Of a stretch of 53,949 nt of DNA, positions 3,186-40,086 are shown piece after piece. This DNA comes from an uncultured Gammaproteobacteria bacterium (lineage in GTDB: Bacteria > Patescibacteriota > Patescibacteriia > UBA9934 > GWF2-40-263): contig CAYHDY010000001.1 in assembly GCA_964355525.1 (NCBI GenBank), positions 1 to 53,949 on the forward strand, in the 5' to 3' direction. The position numbers and the translations under genes were made by a program. The notes beneath the pieces are model-generated. The model had not been told where the DNA came from and searched no databases. It worked only from the letters and a program-made list of their open reading frames with translations. The number at the start of each line of letters is the position of its first letter. Position 1 is the stretch's first letter.

Positions 3186-4745
3186 TTACCGTGCGTACTC
3201 AATAACACGTGTCTCTCGAATGATGGTGACTTTGATTTCACCTGGATAGCTGAGTTCAGATTCAATTTTATTCGCGATGTCTTTTGCAAGTTGGTATGAA
3301 GCGAGATCTGTAATTTTTTCTGGATGAATGAAGACACGCACTTCACGTCCGGCTTGAATCGCGTAGACTTTTTCCACGCCTTCAAATCCGCTCGCAGTGC
3401 GTTCCAATTCTTCCATGCGCTGAATAAAGTTTTCAAGGGATTGCTTGCGCGCTCCCGGCCGCGCACCACTGATCGCATCCGCCGCTTTCACAATCGAACC
3501 TTCGACGGTGCGTGGACGATCCTCATGATGGGCGATGGATTGATAACAAATTTCTTCCGGGAATCCGAATTTCTTCATGATGTTGTAGCCGATTTCTGGA
3601 TGTGCACCCTGCATATCGTGATCAACCGCTTTTCCAATGTCATGAAAGAGTCCTCCTTTTTTACAGACAAACACATCCGCACCGAGTTCTTCTGCCATCA
3701 TTCCCGCAAGGGTTCCAACTTCGATGGAGTGTTGCAAAGCGTTTTGTCCGTAACTGGTACGGAACTTCATGCGGCCTAAAATCGAAACGAGCTTCGGATC
3801 GATGGAAGAAACAGGAATTCCGAGTTGATACAACGCATCTTCTCCGGTCTTCTTAAGTTCTTGTGCGAGAGATTTCTTTGCCTCGGTAACAGATTCTTCG
3901 ATGCGGGCCGGATGAATGCGTCCGTCTTTGATGAGCGCATCAAGTGCGCGTTTCGCAACCTGGCGACGAATAGGGGAGAAACCGCTGATGGTAATAATCG
4001 ACGGTGTGTCATCCACAATGATTTCTGTTCCCGTCAAAAGTTCAATGGCTTTAATGTTACGTCCTTCTTTTCCGATGATGCGTCCTTTCATTTCATCGTT
4101 TGGAAGTTCAACAGCGGTTGTGGTTGTGTCGACGGACACGGACGAAGAGAATCGCGTGATCGCAAGGGAAAGTAATTTGCGTGATTTGATTTCCACTTCT
4201 TCTTCGGTGATCTCATCCATCTTACGCATGCGACTCATGAGCGCTTCTGAAGAATCCACTTCGATTTGTTTCATCAACTTTTCTTCCGCCTGTTCTTTTG
4301 TTAATTGAGCGACGGCTTGCAGTTTCAATTGTTGTTCGTGCTTCAATGTCTCGATGTTCGTTTTAACATCTTCGACTTGTTTCAATTGTTCTTCGAGACG
4401 TGTTTTCTTATCTTCAATCTCGATCAGTTTTTGATCGAACATCGTTTCACGTTTCTCTAATCGTTTCTGTTGTTCTTGGATGTCACGACGTTGAACTTGT
4501 TCTTCCTGCTTTGCGTCTTCAATGACTTTGAACGCTTTTTCTTTTGCCTCGATTAACAATTCTTGTTGCTTGCTTTTTGCCTCGTTCAGCATCTCTTGTT
4601 GTTTGGTTTTGGTCTCCGTCAGAATTTTTTCCGCCTTGTTCTCTGCGTCATCGGCCATGCGGGAGGCTTGTGCTTTTCTGTACACATACCCACCAACCGC
4701 ACCACCTCCGAGCCCGAGAACGAGCAGAAGGATCGAAATAAACAT
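3186..4745 (-). CDS. rny: Ribonuclease Y
   Basis: N-terminal TM helix, long coiled coil, KH region (GRIIGKEGRNIKAIE) and HD domain (LFHDIGKAVDH, HHEDRP). Size 519 aa. Confidence 0.9.
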   Translation of the reverse strand: MFISILLLVLGLGGGAVGGYVYRKAQASRMADDAENKAEKILTETKTKQQEMLNEAKSKQQELLIEAKEKAFKVIEDAKQEEQVQRRDIQEQQKRLEKRETMFDQKLIEIEDKKTRLEEQLKQVEDVKTNIETLKHEQQLKLQAVAQLTKEQAEEKLMKQIEVDSSEALMSRMRKMDEITEEEVEIKSRKLLSLAITRFSSSVSVDTTTTAVELPNDEMKGRIIGKEGRNIKAIELLTGTEIIVDDTPSIITISGFSPIRRQVAKRALDALIKDGRIHPARIEESVTEAKKSLAQELKKTGEDALYQLGIPVSSIDPKLVSILGRMKFRTSYGQNALQHSIEVGTLAGMMAEELGADVFVCKKGGLFHDIGKAVDHDMQGAHPEIGYNIMKKFGFPEEICYQSIAHHEDRPRTVEGSIVKAADAISGARPGARKQSLENFIQRMEELERTASGFEGVEKVYAIQAGREVRVFIHPEKITDLASYQLAKDIANKIESELSYPGEIKVTIIRETRVIEYAR

Positions 4746-4971
4746 AGATAAAAACTTCTCGAACTCCGAGAAGCTTGAAAGACGCGCTCGTCATGGACGA
4801 GGCAATGTATGTGATTGTTTGTCTAAATTATCGCAAAAACAATCCTGAAAACTTCAGGGAGTCGAGAGAAAGAGGAAACAGAAAGTTTTTTTGCAAATAA
4901 TCCATAAACAGTCAGACACAGGCGTCACAGGCTTCAAGGAAGAACAGTTACATCAATAATTACGTGTAAAC

Positions 4972-7363: not shown

Positions 7364-7708
7364 ATGTTGCGTTTGCTCATTCTTCTGACGCTTTATCCCG
7401 AGGAAAAAAAGAGTAACCCTGATGGGTCTGTCGGGAACGGTCAAATTCAATATTCGATCGAAGGATTACTTCGTACGGTGAGGAAGGTCGTTGAAGAGAA
7501 TCTTTTGACTCTCGATCGAAAAATCCTTGACGATTTCGATTTGGTCATTCGAGAGATGCTTGAAAACGGAACGTTGAACGTTATGAACGGAACGGTTCGC
7601 ATCGCTCCTCTCGGAGAGGGTTTTCATAAACTCGAATCAAATCGGTTTTTGCGGTTTGTATGCGAACACGGGAAAGAAATTCAATTCAATGATGCTAAGA
7701 ATACGTAA
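7364..7708 (+). CDS. Hypothetical protein (114 aa)
   Basis: ATG at 7364 is preceded by GGAGG. Intrinsic terminator at 7723-7746. No motif recognised. Confidence 0.5.
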   Translation: MLRLLILLTLYPEEKKSNPDGSVGNGQIQYSIEGLLRTVRKVVEENLLTLDRKILDDFDLVIREMLENGTLNVMNGTVRIAPLGEGFHKLESNRFLRFVCEHGKEIQFNDAKNT

Positions 7709-7722
7709 TTTCATGCTTCTCA

Positions 7723-7746
7723 ATCTGCTCTCAAGCAGATTTTTTC
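7723..7746 (+). terminator. Intrinsic terminator
   Basis: atctgct-ctca-agcagat followed by ttttt. Confidence 0.6.
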
Positions 7747-7764
7747 TTTTCCAGCGGCTTTTCA

Positions 7765-7793
7765 TTGACCTCCCCGTCTTTTCCTTATATACT
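7765..7793 (+). promoter_or_regulatory. Promoter TTGACC-17-TATACT for infB (near-leaderless)
   Basis: TTGACC at 7765-7770 and TATACT at 7788-7793. The infB ATG at 7805 is only 11 nt after the -10 element, with no SD sequence. Confidence 0.5.
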
Positions 7794-7804
7794 CCCGATT
7801 AACT

Positions 7805-9847
7805 ATGAATATCACCGAACTAGCCCGACGTCTTCGTGTTCATCCAAACGAACTCCTGCTTAAATTGCCGGATCTCGGATTTGCGATTGGTGCACGTGCC
7901 ATCAAAGTGGATGACCGTCAGGCGCAAAAAATCATGGAAGCTTGGGCGGAAATGACCCGTAAGGATCGTTTGGCGCGAAAAGTGGAAATTCAAAAGGCAC
8001 AATCTGGTGTGCGTACAAGTGATGTTGCTGTTGCAGACAGAAAACCTGTCGTGCTTCCGGCGATGATGACGGTGCGAGATTTCGCGTCGCTTTTGAATCT
8101 TCCGGTTCCACGCATCATGCAAGAGTTGATGCGAAACGGAATTCTTGCGTCCATTAACGAACGCATCGATTTTGATACCGCATTGATTATCGCGGAAGAT
8201 TTAGGGTTTGCTCCAACGCTTGGAGAACAAAAACAAGCGGGTACGGAAGATACGGAAGGGATCGATAAAGTTCGTGAACGTGCGGAGAGTGAATCGAAAG
8301 ATAAAATGTTGCCGCGTCCGCCGGTTGTTGTTGTGATGGGACACGTTGATCATGGAAAAACAAAATTATTGGATGGCATTCGTAAAACAAACGTGATGGC
8401 GACGGAGGCGGGAGGAATCACACAACACATTGGTGCGTATCAAGTGGAACGTAACGGTCGTGCACTGACATTCATCGACACTCCAGGCCACGAAGCGTTT
8501 ACGGTCATGCGATCCCGCGGAGCAAAGGTTGCGGATATGGCGATTCTTGTTGTCGCAGCCGATGATGGTGTGCAGCCGCAAACACGTGAGGCCGTGAACA
8601 TTATTAAATCTGCAAACTTGCCGTTCATTGTCGCTCTCAACAAAATCGATCGCGCGGAAGCAAACATCGATCGTGTAAAAGGAGAACTCGCGGAACTTGG
8701 TTTGACTCCGGAAGATTGGGGTGGATCGACGGTTGTTGTCGGCGTCTCCGCAAAAGAGGGAACAAACATTGATGGTTTGCTCGACGTCTTGCTTTTGGTT
8801 GCGGATATTGAAAAAGACAACATCGTTGCAAATCCAAATCATCGCGCACTTGGAACCATTGTTGAATCTCATGTGGATACAACCATCGGTCCGGTCGCAA
8901 CCATGCTTGTTCAAAGCGGAACACTTCATGTCGGTGATGTTCTTGGTGTTCGTGGAACATTGTACGGACGTGTTCGTGCGATGAAAGATTGGAAAGGCGA
9001 TGCGGTTATCGATGCAACTCCATCTACTCCTGTTGAAATTATCGGCTGGAAAATCGCTCCTGCGGTTGGAGATGTTATGGATGTTCCTCTCGATGCAAAA
9101 GCATTGAAGCGCATTAAATCCACAGACAGCTCGATGAAAGCAACAGAATCGATGGCAATTCATCACGTGCAAACAGCTGTCGAAACGGAAGCAGAAGGGG
9201 ATCACAAGAAACGAACGCTTACACTGATCATTCGCGCCGACGTGCTCGGATCACTTGAAGCGATTCTCGGCATGATCGATAAAATCAAACACGATGAAGT
9301 TCAGGTGAAGGTGATGAAGAAAGGACTTGGAAACATTACGGACACCGATATTGGCGATGCGGAAGCGGCGGGTGCAATGGTCATGGCGTTTAACACACGC
9401 GTTGTTCCACGCGCAGAAGAACTCGCACGCGAAAAACATGTTACCGTTCGACGTTACGAGATTATCTATCGTTTGTTTGATGACGTCGTTGAAGAATTGC
9501 GTAAGTTGTTGCCGGCTGAATTGATTATTACAGAGCTCGGACAGTTTGAAATCATGAAAGTGTTTCGCAAGTCGGATCACGGTTGGATTGTCGGTGGTCG
9601 CGTAAAGAAATCCAAAATTTTACCAAAAGCAAAATTGCGTTTGAGTCGCAACGGTGAATATATCGGCGAAGGAGAAATTCTTGCACTTCAACTTGGTCCC
9701 GGAGAATTGAAAGAAGGACAACCCGGTCAAGAAATCGGATTGAGTTACAGAGGAAAAGTAAAACCAGAGGAAAAGGATATTTTCGAAGCCTACACGGAAG
9801 AAAAAATTACCAAGTTGTTCAAGCTCGAAGGAATTGAAACACGATAA
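7805..9847 (+). CDS. infB: Translation initiation factor IF-2
   Basis: IF2_N-like N-terminus. G-domain motifs [20 protein letters not shown] and NKID. Size 680 aa. Confidence 0.95.
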   Translation: MNITELARRLRVHPNELLLKLPDLGFAIGARAIKVDDRQAQKIMEAWAEMTRKDRLARKVEIQKAQSGVRTSDVAVADRKPVVLPAMMTVRDFASLLNLPVPRIMQELMRNGILASINERIDFDTALIIAEDLGFAPTLGEQKQAGTEDTEGIDKVRERAESESKDKMLPRPPVVVVMGHVDHGKTKLLDGIRKTNVMATEAGGITQHIGAYQVERNGRALTFIDTPGHEAFTVMRSRGAKVADMAILVVAADDGVQPQTREAVNIIKSANLPFIVALNKIDRAEANIDRVKGELAELGLTPEDWGGSTVVVGVSAKEGTNIDGLLDVLLLVADIEKDNIVANPNHRALGTIVESHVDTTIGPVATMLVQSGTLHVGDVLGVRGTLYGRVRAMKDWKGDAVIDATPSTPVEIIGWKIAPAVGDVMDVPLDAKALKRIKSTDSSMKATESMAIHHVQTAVETEAEGDHKKRTLTLIIRADVLGSLEAILGMIDKIKHDEVQVKVMKKGLGNITDTDIGDAEAAGAMVMAFNTRVVPRAEELAREKHVTVRRYEIIYRLFDDVVEELRKLLPAELIITELGQFEIMKVFRKSDHGWIVGGRVKKSKILPKAKLRLSRNGEYIGEGEILALQLGPGELKEGQPGQEIGLSYRGKVKPEEKDIFEAYTEEKITKLFKLEGIETR

Positions 9848-12261: not shown

Positions 12262-15200
12262 ATGAGTTACAATCATCAAGAAATTGAAAAGAAATGGCAG
12301 GCTCGATGGGAAGCCGACCAACACGGGCGTGTCGTCGAAACTGATTCGAACGAAAATGCCTTGTATTACCTCATCATGTTTCCGTATCCGTCCGGATCCG
12401 GTCTGCATGTAGGCCACGTGGAATCGCAAGCCGCGATTGATATTTTGGCACGCATGGAGCGTATGCGCGGAAAAAATGTGTTGTGTCCGATCGGATACGA
12501 TGCGTTTGGTTTGCCTGCGGAGAATTACGCGATTAAGACGGGTGTGCATCCTTCGGTCACAACGAAACAAGCGATTGAGAATTTTCACAAACAGATGCAA
12601 TCCCTCGGCCTCTCGTTCGATTGGTCACGCGAAATTTCTACGGCGGATCCGGAATACTACAAATGGACACAATGGTTGTTTCTCTTGTTTTATAAAAACG
12701 GTTTGGCATACAGAAAAAAATCTCCCGTGAACTGGTGTGACGGTTGTCATACCGTTCTCGCAAACGAACAAGTCGTCGCCGGCGCCTGCGAACGTTGCGG
12801 CACCATTGTGATCCAAAAAGATTTGGAACAATGGTTTTTCAATATCACAAAATACGCGGATCGTTTACTCGCAGGTCTCGACACAATCGATTGGCCGGAG
12901 AAGATTAAGTCGATGCAGCGGAATTGGATTGGCAAATCGGTTGGAGCGGAAGTCATCTTTCAACTCGCTGATGCGTCATCCCGAGCGAAGTCCGACGAAG
13001 TCGAGGGATCTTCGATTCGCATGGAAGTTGTATTCGCATCGAACAATAAAGCGAAGAAGGCGCGTATGCAGAAATTGGTTGATGCCGCTGGACTCTCGAT
13101 TCAACTGAAGACGCCCGAGGAAATCGGTATTCTTGATTTCGATGTTGTAGAGGATGGTTTGACACTCACGGAGAATTCGGAAAAGAAAGCGCGAGCGCTT
13201 TCGCATCTCACGTCACTGCCGATTCTTGCAGATGATTCCGGATTTTTTATTGAGAACAGTAAATTGGATCCGGTGAAGGTAAAACGAAATGCTCTCGACG
13301 GCGTTGACGAAAAAGAATTTTCAACGGAAGAGATCGGAAACAAGATGCTCACATATTATCAACGCATCGCCACAGATCATGGCGGTCGTGTGGATGCGGA
13401 ATGGCGAAGTTCTTTGTGTTTGATGTCGTCCGCGAAGATATTGAAACAAGAAGAAGCAATCAGACCGACGATTCTGACGAACGAACCGCACGGCATCATG
13501 GATCCGTTTATGCCGCTTCGTCCATTGTATATTTCGAAAGATACAAATAAATACGTTCTCGATCAGACGGATGAAGAAGAATTGATCGAGTTAAAACCGA
13601 TCATGGACGCACTCACACGTTTGTTCCGTCCATCGATTCGTGTTTTTACGACGCGCCCCGACACACTCTTCGGTGCAACGTATCTTGTTCTCGCACCTGA
13701 ACATCAACTTGTTGATTCAATCGTGACCGTTGAACATCGCGCAGAAGTCGAGGTGTATCGCGTCGCTGCGTCGAAGAAATCCGCGCTTGAGCGAACGGAA
13801 TTGCAGAAAGAAAAGACCGGTGTGTTTACGGGTGCGTATGCAATCAATCCTGTGAACGGTGAAGCGATTCCTGTTTGGATCGCAGATTATGTCATCACGA
13901 CATACGGAACCGGAGCGATCATGGCCGTCCCAGCACACGATGAACGAGATTTTGAATTCGCAAAAAAATATCAGTTGCCGACGAAGATTGTTGTCGCATC
14001 AAAAAGTGGGGAAGAGATCGAAGGTTTTTTTGAAGAGGGAGTCGCTGTCCATTCCGAATTTCTTAGTGGACTTTCGACAAGCGGAGCAAAACAAAAAATG
14101 ATTCAGTGGCTCGAGGAGAATCATGTCGGAAATGCGAAGACGACATTTCGTTTGCGCGATTGGCTCGTTTCACGACAACGTTACTGGGGAGCGCCGATTC
14201 CAATTATTTGGTGTGAGGAACATGGGGCACAGGCCGTCGAAGAATCACAACTTCCTGTCGAACTTCCGACCGATGTCGACTTCAAACCGACCGGCGAATC
14301 GCCACTTGTCGATTCAAAAACATTTCACGATGTGAAATGTCCGAAGTGTGGCAAAGATGCGCGTCGCGAGTCTGACACGATGGATACGTTCGTCGACTCG
14401 TCGTGGTACTACTTGCGCTATACAGATCCGCACAACGCGAAGGCGTTCGCGGATAAATCGAAAATCGATTATTGGTGTCCGGTGGATTTGTATCTCGGCG
14501 GCGCGGAACACGCGGTCATGCATTTGTTGTACGCACGCTTTTTCGCATACGCACTTCACGATCTCGGCTATCTGAATTTCTCCGCCAGAGGCGGATCCGC
14601 CTCTGGCGGAGAAGAGCCATTCTTAAAATTGAAAAATCAGGGACTCATCCTCGGACCCGACGGAGACAAGATGTCGAAGTCAAAAGGGAACGTCGTGAAT
14701 CCGGATGAAATCGTTTCCGAGTACGGGGCGGATTCGATTCGTCTCTATGAAATGTTCATGGGGCCGCTTGAAGATGCAAAACCATGGGACACAAAAGGAG
14801 TCGTCGGCGTTCGTCGTTTTCTCGATAAGGTTTGGAAATTGAAAGAAAAAGTCGCCGCCTCTGCGTCATCCCGAGCGCAGCGAAGCGAAGCCGAGGGATC
14901 TTCGAGCGAGGGGGAGATCCTTCGGGTACCTCAGGATGACGCATATGTGAACCGTCTCCTTCACAAAACCATCAAGAAAGTCACGAAGGATCTTGAAGAT
15001 CTGAAATTCAACACGGCGATCTCACAACTCATGATCGCGACGAATGAATTTTCGAGTGTGACATCGATCGAAGAGCAATCACTCGAATCATTGTTGAAAT
15101 TGCTCGCACCGTTCGCGCCGCACATTGCGGAAGAACTCTGGGGACAACTTGGACACACAACATCGATCTTCAAAGAATCATGGCCGACGTTTGATCCGAC

Positions 15201-15402
15201 ACTCATTGTCGACGACGTCATTGAAATGGGTGTGCAAGTGAATGGAAAAGTTCGCGCGACGATTCACATCGCACCGAATGCGGATGAAGCGTCGGCAAAA
15301 GAACTCGCGTTGTCTGAACCGAATGTTTTGAAATGGATTGAAGGAAAAGACATTGTAAAAATTATTTACGTTCCGGGGAAAATTTTTAACATTGTTGTAT
15401 GA
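12262..15402 (+). CDS. leuS: Leucine--tRNA ligase carrying an in-frame Ham1/RdgB-like insertion and three palindromic-element insertions
   Basis: HIGH (GLHVGHVES), Zn module CDGC...CERCG, QRNWIGKS, CP1 editing motifs TTRPDTLFGATY and GTGAIMAVPAHDERD, and KMSKS. At 1046 aa it is much longer than typical bacterial LeuRS. Confidence 0.9.
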   Translation: MSYNHQEIEKKWQARWEADQHGRVVETDSNENALYYLIMFPYPSGSGLHVGHVESQAAIDILARMERMRGKNVLCPIGYDAFGLPAENYAIKTGVHPSVTTKQAIENFHKQMQSLGLSFDWSREISTADPEYYKWTQWLFLLFYKNGLAYRKKSPVNWCDGCHTVLANEQVVAGACERCGTIVIQKDLEQWFFNITKYADRLLAGLDTIDWPEKIKSMQRNWIGKSVGAEVIFQLADASSRAKSDEVEGSSIRMEVVFASNNKAKKARMQKLVDAAGLSIQLKTPEEIGILDFDVVEDGLTLTENSEKKARALSHLTSLPILADDSGFFIENSKLDPVKVKRNALDGVDEKEFSTEEIGNKMLTYYQRIATDHGGRVDAEWRSSLCLMSSAKILKQEEAIRPTILTNEPHGIMDPFMPLRPLYISKDTNKYVLDQTDEEELIELKPIMDALTRLFRPSIRVFTTRPDTLFGATYLVLAPEHQLVDSIVTVEHRAEVEVYRVAASKKSALERTELQKEKTGVFTGAYAINPVNGEAIPVWIADYVITTYGTGAIMAVPAHDERDFEFAKKYQLPTKIVVASKSGEEIEGFFEEGVAVHSEFLSGLSTSGAKQKMIQWLEENHVGNAKTTFRLRDWLVSRQRYWGAPIPIIWCEEHGAQAVEESQLPVELPTDVDFKPTGESPLVDSKTFHDVKCPKCGKDARRESDTMDTFVDSSWYYLRYTDPHNAKAFADKSKIDYWCPVDLYLGGAEHAVMHLLYARFFAYALHDLGYLNFSARGGSASGGEEPFLKLKNQGLILGPDGDKMSKSKGNVVNPDEIVSEYGADSIRLYEMFMGPLEDAKPWDTKGVVGVRRFLDKVWKLKEKVAASASSRAQRSEAEGSSSEGEILRVPQDDAYVNRLLHKTIKKVTKDLEDLKFNTAISQLMIATNEFSSVTSIEEQSLESLLKLLAPFAPHIAEELWGQLGHTTSIFKESWPTFDPTLIVDDVIEMGVQVNGKVRATIHIAPNADEASAKELALSEPNVLKWIEGKDIVKIIYVPGKIFNIVV
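12972..13014. repeat. Palindromic element family A, left-half copy inside leuS (translated as ASSRAKSDEVEGSS)
   Basis: tgcgtcatcccgagcgaag...gagggatcttcg matches the left ends of the copies at 14862 and 28016. Confidence 0.6.
14581..14610. repeat. Palindromic element family B: 30-nt perfect palindrome tccgccagaggcggatccgcctctggcgga inside leuS
   Basis: Perfect self-complementarity. Identical copy at 39646-39675. Exactly 10 codons (SARGGSASGG). Confidence 0.9.
14862..14943. repeat. Palindromic element family A, full copy inside leuS
   Basis: Termini tgcgtcatcccgag / ctcaggatgacgca are inverted repeats (one mismatch). Internal gagggatcttcg / gagatccttcg arms. Translated as SASSRAQRSEAEGSSSEGEILRVPQDDA. 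Confidence 0.8.
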
Positions 15403-16724
15403 ACATCGTGATCATCGGCACGGGATACGTGGGACTGACATCGGGGATTGGATATGCGAAATTGGGGAATCGTGTCGCGTGTGTTGATATCGATGCGGAA
15501 AAAATTGCAAAGCTTGATTTGGGTCAGGTGCCGTTTTTCGAAGCTGGGATGACGGAAGCGCTGCATCAAGAACAAGAAATGGGTTCGATCGTTTTTACGA
15601 CGGATCTCTCATCTGTCCTCGGTGAAGCGGAGGTGATCTTGCTCGCGGTTGGAACGCCGTCGAATTCAAGCGGGGAAGCGAATCTTTCTTTTTTATTTCA
15701 AGCAGCAAAACAAATCGGACAACATCTTGATCACGAAGTTGTGATTGTTACGAAAAGTACGGTGCCGGTCGGAACGAATCGTCGTGTCCTTGCTGCGATT
15801 CAAGAATCGATGGTCGTATCGGGGCGATCGGATCTCACGAGTTTGATTCAGATCGCAAGCGTGCCGGAATTTTTGCGAGAGGGAAGCGCGTTGAGAGATT
15901 TCATGGAACCGGAACGGATCGTGGTTGGAGCGGAAGATGAAATTGTTTTTGCGGTTGTCGAAGCAATGCATCACGGGATTAAAACAACGTGGGTGAAAAC
16001 ATCAATCGAGACAGCCGAGCTCACAAAGTACGCGGCGAACGCGATGCTTGCGACAAAGATTTCGTTCATCAATGAGATTGCAAACATCGCGGATCGCACG
16101 GGTGCGAATGTGCGCGACATTGCGTACGCGATCGGGCTCGACTCGCGGATCGGTCCGCATTTTTTGCAGGCAGGCATCGGATACGGAGGATCGTGTTTTC
16201 CGAAAGACGTTTCTGCATTGCATCAAATCGCCGGCACAAACGGATATGATTTCAAATTATTGACCGCAGTGATCGAAGTGAATAATCGTCAGCGCGATGT
16301 GTTTATCAAAAAAATTCAGGATGTACTCGGCACGTTGAAGGGGCGACGGATTGCTGTGTGGGGACTTGCGTTTAAAGCGGGAACGGATGATGTCAGAGAG
16401 TCTGCATCGATCGATATTGTTCGCCGATTGTACGCACTTGGTGCCGACATTTGTGCATTTGATCCGAAGGCGGAAGTTTCTGCGAAACGTCTATTGCCGG
16501 ACGCTCTTTCATTCGCGTCGACCGCGATCGATGCAGCGGATGGGGCGGAAGCCCTTGTTGTACTCACAGAGTGGCCGGAGTTTCGCGACGTTTCGTTTTC
16601 AACTGTGAAAGCACGCATGCTCGATCCGATTATTTTTGACGGACGCAATCATCTCGCAGATTTATCACTCGCGAAATTTGGATTTCAGTATCACGGCATC
16701 GGTGTATGTTCTTCCGATCGATAA
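15399..16724 (+). CDS. ugd: UDP-glucose 6-dehydrogenase
   Basis: GTGYVGL Rossmann motif and catalytic GGSCFPKD. Size 441 aa. ATGA overlap with leuS. Confidence 0.9.
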   Translation: MNIVIIGTGYVGLTSGIGYAKLGNRVACVDIDAEKIAKLDLGQVPFFEAGMTEALHQEQEMGSIVFTTDLSSVLGEAEVILLAVGTPSNSSGEANLSFLFQAAKQIGQHLDHEVVIVTKSTVPVGTNRRVLAAIQESMVVSGRSDLTSLIQIASVPEFLREGSALRDFMEPERIVVGAEDEIVFAVVEAMHHGIKTTWVKTSIETAELTKYAANAMLATKISFINEIANIADRTGANVRDIAYAIGLDSRIGPHFLQAGIGYGGSCFPKDVSALHQIAGTNGYDFKLLTAVIEVNNRQRDVFIKKIQDVLGTLKGRRIAVWGLAFKAGTDDVRESASIDIVRRLYALGADICAFDPKAEVSAKRLLPDALSFASTAIDAADGAEALVVLTEWPEFRDVSFSTVKARMLDPIIFDGRNHLADLSLAKFGFQYHGIGVCSSDR

Positions 16725-18196
16725 TGGTATCGCCGTCAAAAACATTCGCCGCCCTCGCGGCGATGTTTTGTTTTGGTATTCTCCTCGGTCCATTGTTCAT
16801 TTCTGTTCCGACGAATGTGTACCTCGTTCTTCTGATCGTTTGCGTTTTAATCGTTTCGTTCTCCCCTCCTTCACAAGGAGGGGTAGATGGTGGTCGCGCA
16901 AAGTGGTTCGGTCTTTTTATCCTGATGTTCATCTTCGGATTATTTCGTTACGCACAAAGCGAGATCCCAAAAAATATTCCGACCGTGCGAGAACGCACCG
17001 GTTCGATGCTTCGCATTGAAGGAGATGTGATTGCCGAACCAGCCATCAGTTCGAAATCGCAACAAGTCACGATTGGTCATGTACGTGTTGTCGATGAGTC
17101 TCTTTTTGGAAACGTTCTCGTTTCCATTTCGAAAGATCAATCGATCGTGTACGGGGATCACCTCACGTTCGCGTGCTCGATGCAGATTCCTCGACCGTTC
17201 AGCGGATTTGCTTACGATCGATTTCTTCAAGCGAAAGGTGTCTTTGCTCTTTGTCGATTTCCGCACAATCTTGATCGTGTTGCGTCGAAACAGTTCTCAA
17301 TCGCCGGATCGATTCTTTCTTTCAAACATCAAATCATCACAAAAATGAAACAGATTTTTCCCGAACCGCACGCGTCGTTTCTCTTCGGTCTCGTGTTCGG
17401 CGGAAACATCGGACTCGATAAAGATATTCAAAATGATTTTGCGAAGACAGGAACATCGCACATTCTTGCCGCATCCGGTTTCAATGTTTCGTTGTTTACG
17501 TTCGTCTTCTTCGGCTGGGTGATTCAATATCTCGGTCGAAAGCGCGGAGCGATCGCGACACTCATTCTTCTCGGTGCATATGTGATCATGGCTGGTGCGA
17601 CGGCGGCTGTCGTTCGAGCTGCTGTGTTTGGAGTCGTACTGCTTACTGGTTCTGTGATCGGTCGGCGTGCACATGTTTTGAATGCATTATTGTTCACAGC
17701 ATCGCTCATGTTGTTTTACAATCCGCGTTGGCTTCTTGATGATGTTGGGTTTCAACTTTCTTTCGTTGCCTTCGCGGCAATCATGTTTGTCGCACCGCGA
17801 ATCGAAGAGCGACTCGAATTTATTCCTGATCGATTCGGAATCCGCGATGCACTCGCCGGTTCTCTCTCGGCGATTCTCCTCACGCTTCCGATCATGCTCT
17901 GGCAATTCGGTTCCGTCTCGCTCACCGCCCCGTTTGCAAACGTTTTCGTTTTGCCGCTCCTTCCGTTTCTGATGTTGTATACGATCGCGATTCTTCCGAT
18001 CGCATGGATCTCAACGATCGTCGGAACATACATTGCCCTTCCGTCACTCATCGGATCTAGATACGTTCTTACGATCATTGGGATTTTCGCGTCACCGACA
18101 TTCGCCTACGTTCCCGTTCCGTTTGCGCATGCCGCCGCGATCATCTCAGCGATCGCAATCATCATCGGATGCGTTGTCTTTTTTCGACGGTCGTGA
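16724..18196 (+). CDS. comEC: ComEC/Rec2-family competence channel protein (no metallo-beta-lactamase domain)
   Basis: Polytopic membrane protein. Competence-domain segment FAKTGTSHILAASGFNVS. TAATG overlap with ugd. Element at 16861-16896 lies in an early loop. Confidence 0.75.
   Translation: MVSPSKTFAALAAMFCFGILLGPLFISVPTNVYLVLLIVCVLIVSFSPPSQGGVDGGRAKWFGLFILMFIFGLFRYAQSEIPKNIPTVRERTGSMLRIEGDVIAEPAISSKSQQVTIGHVRVVDESLFGNVLVSISKDQSIVYGDHLTFACSMQIPRPFSGFAYDRFLQAKGVFALCRFPHNLDRVASKQFSIAGSILSFKHQIITKMKQIFPEPHASFLFGLVFGGNIGLDKDIQNDFAKTGTSHILAASGFNVSLFTFVFFGWVIQYLGRKRGAIATLILLGAYVIMAGATAAVVRAAVFGVVLLTGSVIGRRAHVLNALLFTASLMLFYNPRWLLDDVGFQLSFVAFAAIMFVAPRIEERLEFIPDRFGIRDALAGSLSAILLTLPIMLWQFGSVSLTAPFANVFVLPLLPFLMLYTIAILPIAWISTIVGTYIALPSLIGSRYVLTIIGIFASPTFAYVPVPFAHAAAIISAIAIIIGCVVFFRRS
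16861..16896. repeat. Palindromic element family C' inside comEC (translated as SPPSQGGVDGGR)
   Basis: ctcccctcctt-caca-aggagggg...ggtggtcg. Sibling at 18733-18769 with the same ggtggtcg tail. Confidence 0.7.
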
Positions 18197-28015: not shown

Positions 28016-28121
28016 TGCGTCATCCTGAACGAAGGTTGGTGATCTGTCACAACCGAAGCTGAAGGATCTCTGTGCGAATTCGATTCGCCCGAAGATCCTT
28101 CGGCAAGCTCAGGATGACGCA
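28016..28121. repeat. Palindromic element family A, full-length intergenic copy (106 nt)
   Basis: Termini tgcgtcatcctgaacgaagg / ...caagctcaggatgacgca. Internal gaaggatct / agatccttc arms. Confidence 0.8.
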
Positions 28122-28132
28122 TGTAAAAAATT

Positions 28133-39033: not shown

Positions 39034-40086
39034 ATGAAAAAAGATTTGATTCCAAAAAAAGTTTTAGCAGCATTTGGTTTATCTTCACCACGATCTGTAA
39101 TCATGATTGCATCCGGTTTGATTCACCAAACGTATTGTGTTGATTCGGGCAAAGATAAGTATATCATCCAGCGATTACATCCCGTCCTTGCAAGCGAGGA
39201 AATCGCGGAGGATTTTCTTGCGGTGACAAAATTTTTACACGAACAAAAATTTTTAGCGCCACAGTGCGTTCTGTCAAAAAATGGGAGCGTGTTGGTGCAT
39301 ATTAATGATTTTTCTTGGCGTGCGCAAACATTTATCGCGGGGAAAACGGTTCATCGATTGAAAAATGTGGCGATGGCAAAAGAAGCAGGAATGATTTATG
39401 CGCAATTTCATAAAACGCTTGCAGTGATTCCATATCAATTCAAATCAAAAAAAGTTTTGCACGATACGGAAAAAATTTTTGACACATTTCGAAAAACAGT
39501 TGATTCATACCGTGATTCTGAATTAATGACGGAGGTTCATTCGGAAGTTGAATTTCTTTTAAAACAGACGCCAAAGTATTTTTTACCAAAGTCACTGCCT
39601 CTCCGTGTGATTCACGGTGATCCGAAAATATCGAACATTCTTTTTTCCGCCAGAGGCGGATCCGCCTCTGGCGGAGATCGAAATGGAAAAGCGAAAGCGA
39701 TTGTTGATCTCGATACATGCAATCGACGTCCACTTCTTGTTGAACTCGGCGATGCATTTCGGTCGTGGTGTGGAGGTGTTGAGGACGATTCAAAAAATAC
39801 ATTTTCGATTCCATTATTTCGTGCTGCATGGAAAGGGTATGAATCGATTGCGAAATCATTGATAACAAAAAAAGAAAAACAACAGGTTCCGAAAAGTATC
39901 GGAACGATTACGCTTGAACTCGCATGTCGATTTATGACAGATTATTTTGCGGATACATATTTCGGTTGGGATTCAACAAGATATTCATCGCGTCGTTTGC
40001 AGAATCTTGCGCGTGTACGAGGACAGATTGCGGAGTTCAAAGATTATCAAAAAAAACAGAAGGAGATCCAAAAGATTGTTTCTTGA
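39034..40086 (+). CDS. Phosphotransferase (APH/choline-kinase family) protein carrying the family B palindrome
   Basis: Catalytic loop VIHGDPKISNILF and metal loop AIVDLDT. Confidence 0.65.
   Translation: MKKDLIPKKVLAAFGLSSPRSVIMIASGLIHQTYCVDSGKDKYIIQRLHPVLASEEIAEDFLAVTKFLHEQKFLAPQCVLSKNGSVLVHINDFSWRAQTFIAGKTVHRLKNVAMAKEAGMIYAQFHKTLAVIPYQFKSKKVLHDTEKIFDTFRKTVDSYRDSELMTEVHSEVEFLLKQTPKYFLPKSLPLRVIHGDPKISNILFSARGGSASGGDRNGKAKAIVDLDTCNRRPLLVELGDAFRSWCGGVEDDSKNTFSIPLFRAAWKGYESIAKSLITKKEKQQVPKSIGTITLELACRFMTDYFADTYFGWDSTRYSSRRLQNLARVRGQIAEFKDYQKKQKEIQKIVS
39646..39675. repeat. Palindromic element family B: identical 30-nt perfect palindrome inside the kinase gene
   Basis: tccgccagaggcggatccgcctctggcgga, 30/30 identical to 14581-14610. 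Same reading frame (SARGGSASGG). Confidence 0.9.

Follow-up and report, generated by a model that had tools for sequence, protein, structure and literature searches.

The stretch of DNA analysed here, a contig of 53,949 nt (CAYHDY010000001.1, assembly GCA_964355525.1) that is referred to as the window over its whole length, raises the question of why a leucyl-tRNA synthetase gene (leuS) should contain a 30-nt palindrome that adds ten residues to the protein and leaves its reading frame intact. The original prediction held that the palindrome is a mobile or copy-pasted element rather than ordinary coding sequence, and hundreds of unrelated sites in other genomes were found to carry it. It enters DNA as a discrete 30-bp insertion at a short symmetric target, has multiplied within genomes and is shared across phyla. 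We concluded that the 30-mer is probably a very small non-autonomous mobile double-hairpin element (6-bp stems, 3-nt loops), horizontally spread and selfish.

The 30-mer, TCCGCCAGAGGCGGATCCGCCTCTGGCGGA, matches the window exactly at 14581-14610 and again at 39646-39675, and none of 100 dinucleotide-preserving shuffles gave a 30-mer match when up to three mismatches were allowed. It is perfectly self-complementary and therefore has no orientation of its own. Host gene 1, leuS (12262-15402, plus strand; 1046 aa), comes from a Candidatus Uhrbacteria-like Patescibacteria genome and holds copy 1 in frame, read on the plus strand as SARGGSASGG (LeuRS aa 774-783) in the context ...HDLGYLNF[SARGGSASGG]EEPFLKLKNQGLILG. 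At this site the palindrome is longer by 3 nt per side (TTC...GAA, 14578-14613): the left half-site at 14578-14580 (plus strand) is TTC, the codon of Phe773, which predates the insertion according to the orthologue DNA aatttc^gag (^ marks the insertion point), and the right half-site at 14611-14613 (plus strand) is GAA, a Glu codon that likewise predates it. Each 15-nt half of the 30-mer is a hairpin in its own right (TCCGCC-NNN-GGCGGA, 6-bp stem and 3-nt loop; no strand is assigned). Module 1 of copy 1 (14581-14595) is TCCGCC-AGA-GGCGGA, with a single-stranded DNA fold of -5.9 kcal/mol (z = -4.6), and module 2 (14596-14610) is TCCGCC-TCT-GGCGGA, also folding at -5.9 kcal/mol; the complete 30-mer as single-stranded DNA folds at -17.5 kcal/mol (z = -6.7). 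Copy 2 (39646-39675, plus strand) is identical and lies in the same frame in host gene 2 (39034-40086, plus strand), which encodes a 350-aa APH-fold sugar kinase; its decapeptide is aa 205-214 (...HGDPKISNILF[SARGGSASGG]DRNGKAKAIVDLD). Homologues of the kinase match Pfam PF01636, and its AlphaFold2 model is closest in fold to N-acetylhexosamine 1-kinase (NahK; 4ocv, Foldseek TM 0.86, E = 6e-22). The sequence and the translations of its open reading frames (ORFs) thus agree with two claims made beforehand, that the palindrome is exactly in frame in leuS and that the same 30-mer recurs in an unrelated gene. Beyond these two copies the window contains no other copy and no single module, even with one mismatch.

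Both window copies are recent, clean insertions. The closest relatives of the LeuRS are found in Candidatus Uhrbacteria and related Patescibacteria, and the decapeptide is absent from all ∼110 aligned homologues, which read ...HDLGYLNF^EEPF...; it is also absent from the distant LeuRS of Thermus thermophilus (1h3n/2v0c; HDLGMVKV^EEPFQGLFTQGMVL). Removal of the decapeptide restores the LeuRS spacing, as had been expected. Similarly, all 120 kinase homologues examined are devoid of it. At the DNA level the empty leuS site in L122 and L123 is aatttc^gaggaa, against aatttc[30-mer]gaagag in the window, a gain of exactly 30 nt with the flank neither duplicated nor deleted. The empty kinase site in contig L125 is attcttttt^gatcta, and again the window carries exactly 30 extra nt and no duplicated flank; L125 and the window are 92.6% identical upstream of the site and 98.2% identical downstream. 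An independent assembly (L124) has the identical leuS insert, with 16 single-nucleotide differences in 5351 nt and one residue change (R871Q), which argues for inheritance of the insert in a natural population and against an assembly accident.

To what extent is the 30-mer found elsewhere? For one genome per GTDB species we used a pattern with free loops (TCCGCCNNNGGCGGATCCGCCNNNGGCGGA; chance expectation ∼0.004 matches), and for a metagenome collection the exact perfect palindrome only; both scans give lower bounds on copy counts. The genome scan returned at least 119 stretches from at least 106 genome assemblies, and the matches listed are all metagenome-assembled genomes (MAGs). The metagenome scan found the exact 30-mer in at least 120 contigs, some of them from groundwater samples judging by the contig names. 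The 30-mer is therefore far from confined to its two sites in the window. Its hosts span at least 12 phyla and include many Patescibacteria classes, Omnitrophota, Planctomycetota, Ignavibacteriota, Kiritimatiellota/Verrucomicrobiota, Lentisphaerota, Chloroflexota, Firmicutes, Margulisbacteria, Firestonebacteria, Auribacterota and MAGs labelled Gamma- or Deltaproteobacteria. The original prediction had spoken of a phenomenon of this lineage, which proved too narrow: many classes of Patescibacteria have the element, as do at least 11 phyla besides. Copies are present in short-read and long-read assemblies of many laboratories, some of them on long-read contigs of 0.7-1.65 Mb, and the occurrence in Ignavibacteriota, Omnitrophota and others on contigs of 0.15-1.65 Mb makes binning error an unlikely source of the cross-phylum spread. 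Among the copies listed, to which the frame and context counts below also refer, the loop variant is identical in 11 of 24 same-genome copy pairs as compared to 5% of random pairs. This fits amplification from lineage-specific master copies, and the two identical copies of the window fit the same pattern. A phage or plasmid vector was rejected, given only two matches in the 2.9 million contigs of IMG/VR and no true match in 72,556 plasmids (PLSDB) or 50,697 phage records (INPHARED). A known RNA family was also rejected: Rfam gave no match at gathering thresholds and noise alone at a permissive threshold. Full-text searches of the literature by DNA string, peptide string and topic gave no description of the element, which is apparently undescribed to date.

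Most copies lie within genes, and in one preferred frame. Open frames of at least 120 codons contain 187 of 246 copies. The frames 0, 1 and 2 are used by 80, 9 and 7 copies in the genome set (the two window copies included) and by 72, 11 and 8 copies in the metagenome set. In frame 0 the encoded peptide is SAxGGSAxGG, in frame 1 PPxADPPxAE and in frame 2 RxRRIRxxRK. The combined ratio of 152:20:15 (81% frame 0) departs strongly from the 0.45, 0.43 and 0.12 expected from the phases at which TTYRAA sites fall relative to codons in long ORFs of these loci (p = 6e-25). Target preference alone cannot explain such a bias, which indicates that copies in the Pro-rich and Arg-rich frames have been purged; statistically, genic copies survive mainly in the frame that gives a flexible Ser-Ala-x-Gly-Gly-Ser-Ala-x-Gly-Gly. 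The description of the palindrome as a unit coding for Gly, Ser and Ala is consistent with this bias. The proteins hosting frame-0 copies include RpoC, RpoB, DnaE, PheT (two copies), Mfd, ArsA, HsdR, an amylase and another class I aminoacyl-tRNA synthetase; RecG is also among the hosts of the element, which number hundreds of genes, essential ones among them.

In AlphaFold2 models both window inserts are predicted to lie in disordered surface loops. The LeuRS model (mean predicted local distance difference test score, pLDDT, 86.9) has only three segments below 50: residues 778-781 belong to the 30-mer insert, and residues 239-251 and 868-889 are the peptides of two other hairpin elements described below. 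In the kinase model (mean pLDDT 92.1) the sole segment below 50 is aa 208-216, at the insert, which sits in the turn between strands 202-204 and 220-223 that joins the HGD...N catalytic loop to the DLD motif. The insert is probably translated and tolerated, and would be essentially neutral selfish DNA and not a functional addition to LeuRS.

The insertion target is short and palindromic, roughly TTY^RA(A). In a flank logo of 254 half-sites, T occupies positions -3, -2 and -1 in 59, 82 and 61% of cases, respectively, and C is found at -1 in 22%; no conservation extends beyond position -3, and the complementarity of left and right flanks exceeds background only at ±1 to ±3. The empty sites already hold the flanking T's and A's, which therefore represent a target preference and are not part of the element. 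The idea that the element enters the tip of a larger hairpin or palindrome was rejected, since the flank complementarity is confined to ±1 to ±3; despite this rejection, nested insertion into other hairpins does occur (L025 and L074). Target-site duplication is absent in four of four cases, namely the leuS and kinase empty sites and two inferred RecG sites. In the RecG orthologues of L171 (11797) and L179 (2081), whose flanking DNA is only 49-57% identical, one and the same 30-mer interrupts the conserved motif ...RF^K..IDILV.T.VIEVG at the same F^K junction (TTT^AAA). Solved RecG structures (Thermotoga and E. coli-type) show a 10-residue gap exactly at the insert position. The pair is best read as parallel insertion into one preferred site.

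A side observation concerns three copies in Ignavibacteria MAGs (L028 at 6021, L041 at 390 and L071 at 2838), which lie at the same relative position near the C-terminus of three proteins, in the shared context ...(V/I)(Q/E)F[insert](D/N)...(A/S)SG(V/I)Y. The C-terminal segment bearing the insert presumably resembles a type IX secretion sorting domain. These copies could have been inherited within a paralogous domain family, or could reflect repeated insertion into one target.

The conserved unit is not the 30-nt palindrome, as the original prediction had it, but a tandem pair of 15-nt hairpins with a conserved core GCC...GGC. The set informative for stem conservation consists of 42 diverged copies (1-6 mismatches) that lie in the same loci and were not selected by the search. 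Among their 164 changed stem positions, 80 are Watson-Crick compensated inside the same 15-nt half and only 6 across the 30-nt palindrome. Over 32 aligned sequences the two-hairpin structure reaches 96.9% pairing, with 8 of 12 pairs changing on both sides (35 cells), and its score was equalled by none of 500 shuffles. The long 30-nt hairpin was rejected as a selected structure, showing no covariation and doing no better than shuffles. Recurrent module variants are TCAGCC..GGCTGA, CCCGCC..GGCGGG, TGCGCC..GGCGCA and TTCGCC..GGCGAA, and modules can be mixed. At L025 (7415-7473) a 30-mer is nested in the loop of another module (TCCGCC-TTG-[30-mer]-GGCGGA) beside a CCCGCC..GGCGGG module, which indicates that module arrays can build up.

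By what means might such a unit move? A trans-acting enzyme may recognise the pair of hairpins on their extrusion in single-stranded or cruciform DNA, and the same enzyme would cut and join at TTY^RAA without staggered cuts. A reaction of this kind would resemble that of the HUH/Y1 transposases that move REP/IS200-type hairpin elements. A cis-linked transposase was rejected: in all-against-all clustering of the first 121 loci no gene family recurs beside the copies, none of the ORF families exceeding 5 loci, although no search aimed at HUH/Y1 transposases was made. No transposase was found among 20 window ORFs scanned against Pfam. Where copies are paired, the genes that they enclose are ordinary except for a single GIY-YIG ORF. 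The 1.7 Mb of loci contain 17 small GIY-YIG ORFs (15 distinct), and for 6 of the 15 the distance to a copy is no more than 200 nt; the window itself has no GIY-YIG ORF. Hairpin modules that were not ascertained by the search occur at 0.55 per kb near GIY-YIG ORFs vs. 0.06 per kb overall (∼9-fold), a comparison that ignores the non-independence of loci.

Several points weigh against the mobile-element reading or its proposed enzyme. More than half of the module count next to GIY-YIG ORFs comes from one locus; the association is modest, and both kinds of sequence may just accumulate in permissive intergenic DNA. The main scans fixed the stems or the whole 30-mer, so that stem conservation in those sets arises by construction. 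The copies counted as genic are those in open frames of at least 120 codons, defined without gene calls, and some MAG taxon labels ("uncultured Gammaproteobacteria") are the output of automated pipelines. That the insert is translated we infer from the frame bias, and the mobilising enzyme and the insertion chemistry we infer as well. The small GIY-YIG nuclease is the only candidate mobiliser with any support here, and this support is suggestive.

A further reading gives that nuclease the leading part. The double-hairpin element and other GC-rich hairpin families would be non-autonomous partners of free-standing GIY-YIG cassettes (∼80-125 aa, COG2827/YhbQ-like), a tentative view that we consider rather unlikely. 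The nuclease would recognise extruded hairpins or loops with TTY^RAA, including tRNA T-loops and anticodon loops, and would cut there; repair or ligation would then install the 30-bp unit. If true, this would define a new nuclease-driven class of bacterial mobile element, the smallest known, with inter-phylum spread in groundwater and sediment and with Gly/Ser-rich loops continuously written into essential proteins. In a study of groundwater, Patescibacteria were predicted to have been donors of GIY-YIG-domain genes to other bacteria (PMC12455944).

Some arrangements around GIY-YIG genes are recorded here as side observations. In L135/L190 (∼4100-4760), L158 (∼990-1500) and L025 (∼7370-7860) a degraded tRNA copy is followed by a GIY-YIG gene and an intact tRNA, and the degraded copies hold double hairpins in the anticodon loop (cccTTTT^AAgg) or the T-loop (ggTTC^GAtcc). 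In L204 (with L211) the order is GIY-YIG gene, intact tRNA and a T-arm fragment holding the 30-mer. The degraded and intact copies around the GIY-YIG genes are the same tRNA, and TTCGAA, the sequence in the tRNA T-loop, is also the leuS target. In L156 (4745-5400) a 96-aa GIY-YIG ORF is bounded by its own inverted repeats (GTCATCCCCG.../...CGGGGATGAC). An ∼85-nt segment containing the exact 30-mer stands on either side of it as a direct duplicate, as if a cassette had been inserted with a long duplication.

An improbable alternative is that the 30-mer is a minimal DDE-type MITE (a miniature transposable element with inverted repeats), its 15-bp halves being the terminal inverted repeats of a gutted insertion sequence moved by a conventional transposase. 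Two abutted terminal inverted repeats would make exactly such a palindrome, and the element is indeed high-copy and non-autonomous. Its ends differ from those of a MITE in that no target-site duplication accompanies them in the two filled/empty comparisons or at the two inferred RecG sites. In addition, the halves covary as separate hairpins and not as mutual mirror images, and no transposase family recurs near the copies in the first 121 loci.

Less probable still is a host-beneficial signal, for instance a sequence for DNA uptake or recognition or a hairpin with a regulatory or structural role, accumulated by biased uptake or selection and not by transposition. DNA uptake sequences (DUS) and uptake signal sequences (USS) are over-represented short motifs, often paired as inverted repeats and frame-biased inside genes, all of which resemble the element. 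A ComEC/competence gene (16706-18196) lies 1.3 kb downstream of leuS, and on both strands T is found 5′ of the hairpins and A is found 3′ of them, so that they do not form terminators. An intrinsic terminator is a GC-rich hairpin with a T run after it on the transcribed strand; in the element the T run comes first and an A run follows, and most copies lie inside ORFs. DUS and USS arise by substitution and recombination within one lineage, whereas the copies studied here are discrete 30-nt insertions into otherwise conserved codons and not point mutations, and one sequence is common to at least 12 phyla. The location of most copies within genes, with disordered loops predicted for the two that were modelled, also argues against a signal. 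The gene order leuS, UDP-glucose dehydrogenase, ComEC and NDK matches that of the closest Uhrbacteria relative, an observation that bears only on the uptake-sequence alternative.

It is very improbable that the 30-mer is removed at the RNA level in an intron-like manner (e.g., by hairpin cleavage and ligation), leaving the proteins unaffected. The RNA form would be a very stable hairpin, and copies also occur at anticodon-loop and T-loop positions of tRNA-gene fragments. A spliced insert, however, would not show the strong bias for one frame, and where the loop is TGA on one strand the host ORF is on the other strand or ends there. A role as tRNA intron was rejected: in silico deletion of the 30-mer restored an intact tRNA at none of 259 copies, and the tRNA-loop copies sit in degraded duplicates beside intact tRNA genes. 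Finally, an assembly, linker or sequencing artefact deserves almost no credence, for although the perfect palindrome has a central GGATCC (BamHI) site and the at least 119 genome matches listed are all from MAGs, the insert is held by an independent strain-level assembly (L124), the 30-mer occurs in data of many laboratories and platforms including megabase long-read contigs and is absent from the plasmid and phage records searched, and an artefact leaves the frame bias, the target preference, the within-genome loop variants and the compensatory stem changes unexplained.

Where does a mobile double hairpin of this kind stand among known repeats? By analogy, it may be regarded as a hairpin-type selfish repeat colonising coding sequence, its closest functional parallel being the Rickettsia palindromic elements (RPE), reportedly described by Ogata and colleagues in 2000. 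Like the element, RPE are selfish palindromic repeats found in frame in protein genes, housekeeping genes included, and also in non-coding DNA; they are translated as surface-exposed segments and do not destroy the protein. RPE are ∼100-150 bp long, confined to Rickettsia and tagged by CGTC at one end (PMC3733652). The element differs in being a 30-bp tandem double hairpin found in at least 12 phyla; it has no CGTC tag, its ends being TCCG.../...CGGA and its flanks TTT/AAA, and it has no sequence similarity to RPE as judged via Rfam (no match above noise), with the consensus sequences RPE-1 to RPE-8 not used. The RPE precedent named in the original prediction thus stands for in-frame insertion at tolerated surface positions and fails for family membership, in which size, tag and sequence all differ. 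REP sequences (from "repetitive extragenic palindromic") and their inverted doublets (REPIN) are likewise GC-rich, non-autonomous, high-copy hairpin repeats of 20-40 nt, inserted without target duplication and presumably recognised as single-stranded DNA hairpins. One end of a REP sequence bears the tetranucleotide GTAG (or CGTC); most REP sequences are found outside genes, and they flank the gene of a REP-associated tyrosine transposase (RAYT) (PMC3733652). The element shares the doublet form, its two 15-nt hairpins standing in tandem or inverted arrangement, but it has neither tag, is flanked by TTT/AAA and is not predominantly extragenic, as about three quarters of the copies are in long open frames; no linked RAYT-type gene is visible among the first 121 loci, in which no HUH-profile search was made.

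The IS200/IS605 palindrome-associated elements (PATE) have asymmetric, much longer ends and insert strand-specifically. They share with the element the dependence on hairpins, the lack of target duplication and insertion 3′ of a short specific flank; TTY lies directly 5′ of the element on both strands, as for IS200/IS605-type flank-specific insertion. The element differs from them in its two-fold symmetry and its size of only 30 bp. Double-hairpin elements, GC clusters and repetitive hairpin-forming elements have been described in mitochondria of fungi, sponges and algae (PMC2800124; PMC4478555). Such elements are similarly short and mobile, invade intergenic DNA, rRNA genes and occasionally protein genes, are acquired repeatedly and also lack a known enzyme; they differ in belonging to eukaryote organelle genomes, in having unrelated sequences and in that none is reported as one identical unit across bacterial phyla. 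What is unusual in the element is that it measures 30 bp, inserts symmetrically and without a scar, is built of tandem hairpins and is identical across phyla.

At 30 bp, scarless and without coding capacity, the element would rank among the smallest mobile DNA units known to us. With it, the occurrence of selfish DNA within protein genes reaches beyond a single intracellular genus, Rickettsia, to much of uncultured bacterial diversity. The identical 30-mer in Patescibacteria, Omnitrophota, Planctomycetota, Ignavibacteriota, Chloroflexota and others, phyla that live together, directly marks gene flow between them or a mobilising agent that they share. Inflated or fragmented protein alignments, spurious ORFs and broken assemblies are expected side effects, and recognition of the element would improve MAG annotation. 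It also provides a natural experiment, marking where RpoB, RpoC, DnaE, LeuRS and RecG tolerate 10-residue flexible loops, and a defined substrate for finding a hairpin-specific DNA-processing enzyme.

The two host genes carry other inserts as well. A second, unrelated hairpin-repeat family occurs in frame in the same leuS at 12972-13015 and 14862-14944, with a related intergenic copy at 28058-28122 (TGCGTCATCCCGAGCG...GGGATCTTCGA / ...CTCAGGATGACGCAT); its peptides in LeuRS, SSRAKSDEVEGSS and ASSRAQRSEAEGSSSEGEILRVPQDD, are both absent in the closest homologues, and the LeuRS of relatives have different hairpin-derived peptides in the same loops. A Ham1/ITPase-like domain (PF01725; window ∼13015-13626, aa ∼252-455) is inserted just before the CP1 editing domain, between ...GAEVIF and ...VFTTRPDT. 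At this point an ASCH domain, or no domain, is found in the closest LeuRS relatives (best local alignment, 73-80% identity), and more distant Patescibacteria LeuRS contain NUDIX or alpha/beta-hydrolase domains at positions that were not mapped. The pre-CP1 site looks like a domain-swap hot spot. The kinase loop that hosts the 30-mer holds other GC-rich inserts in L126 (P0142), P0137, P0143, P0154, P0156, P0191 and P0194; the inserts of relatives include GPPPARGGARGGGSLV, encoded by cccccccctgcccgagggggggctaggggggg, and SPFGKGGSRGV-type peptides. This loop is repeatedly colonised by different inserts, at least one of them hairpin-forming.

Elsewhere in the window, a hairpin followed by a T run is present in two copies of 91% identity at 91-124 and 723-756 (CTTACAC(T/C)GC(G/A)ATTCTCTCGC(A/G)GTGTTTTTTTAT). 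The pair flanks a cytidine-deaminase gene (197-673) and resembles a duplicated intrinsic terminator.

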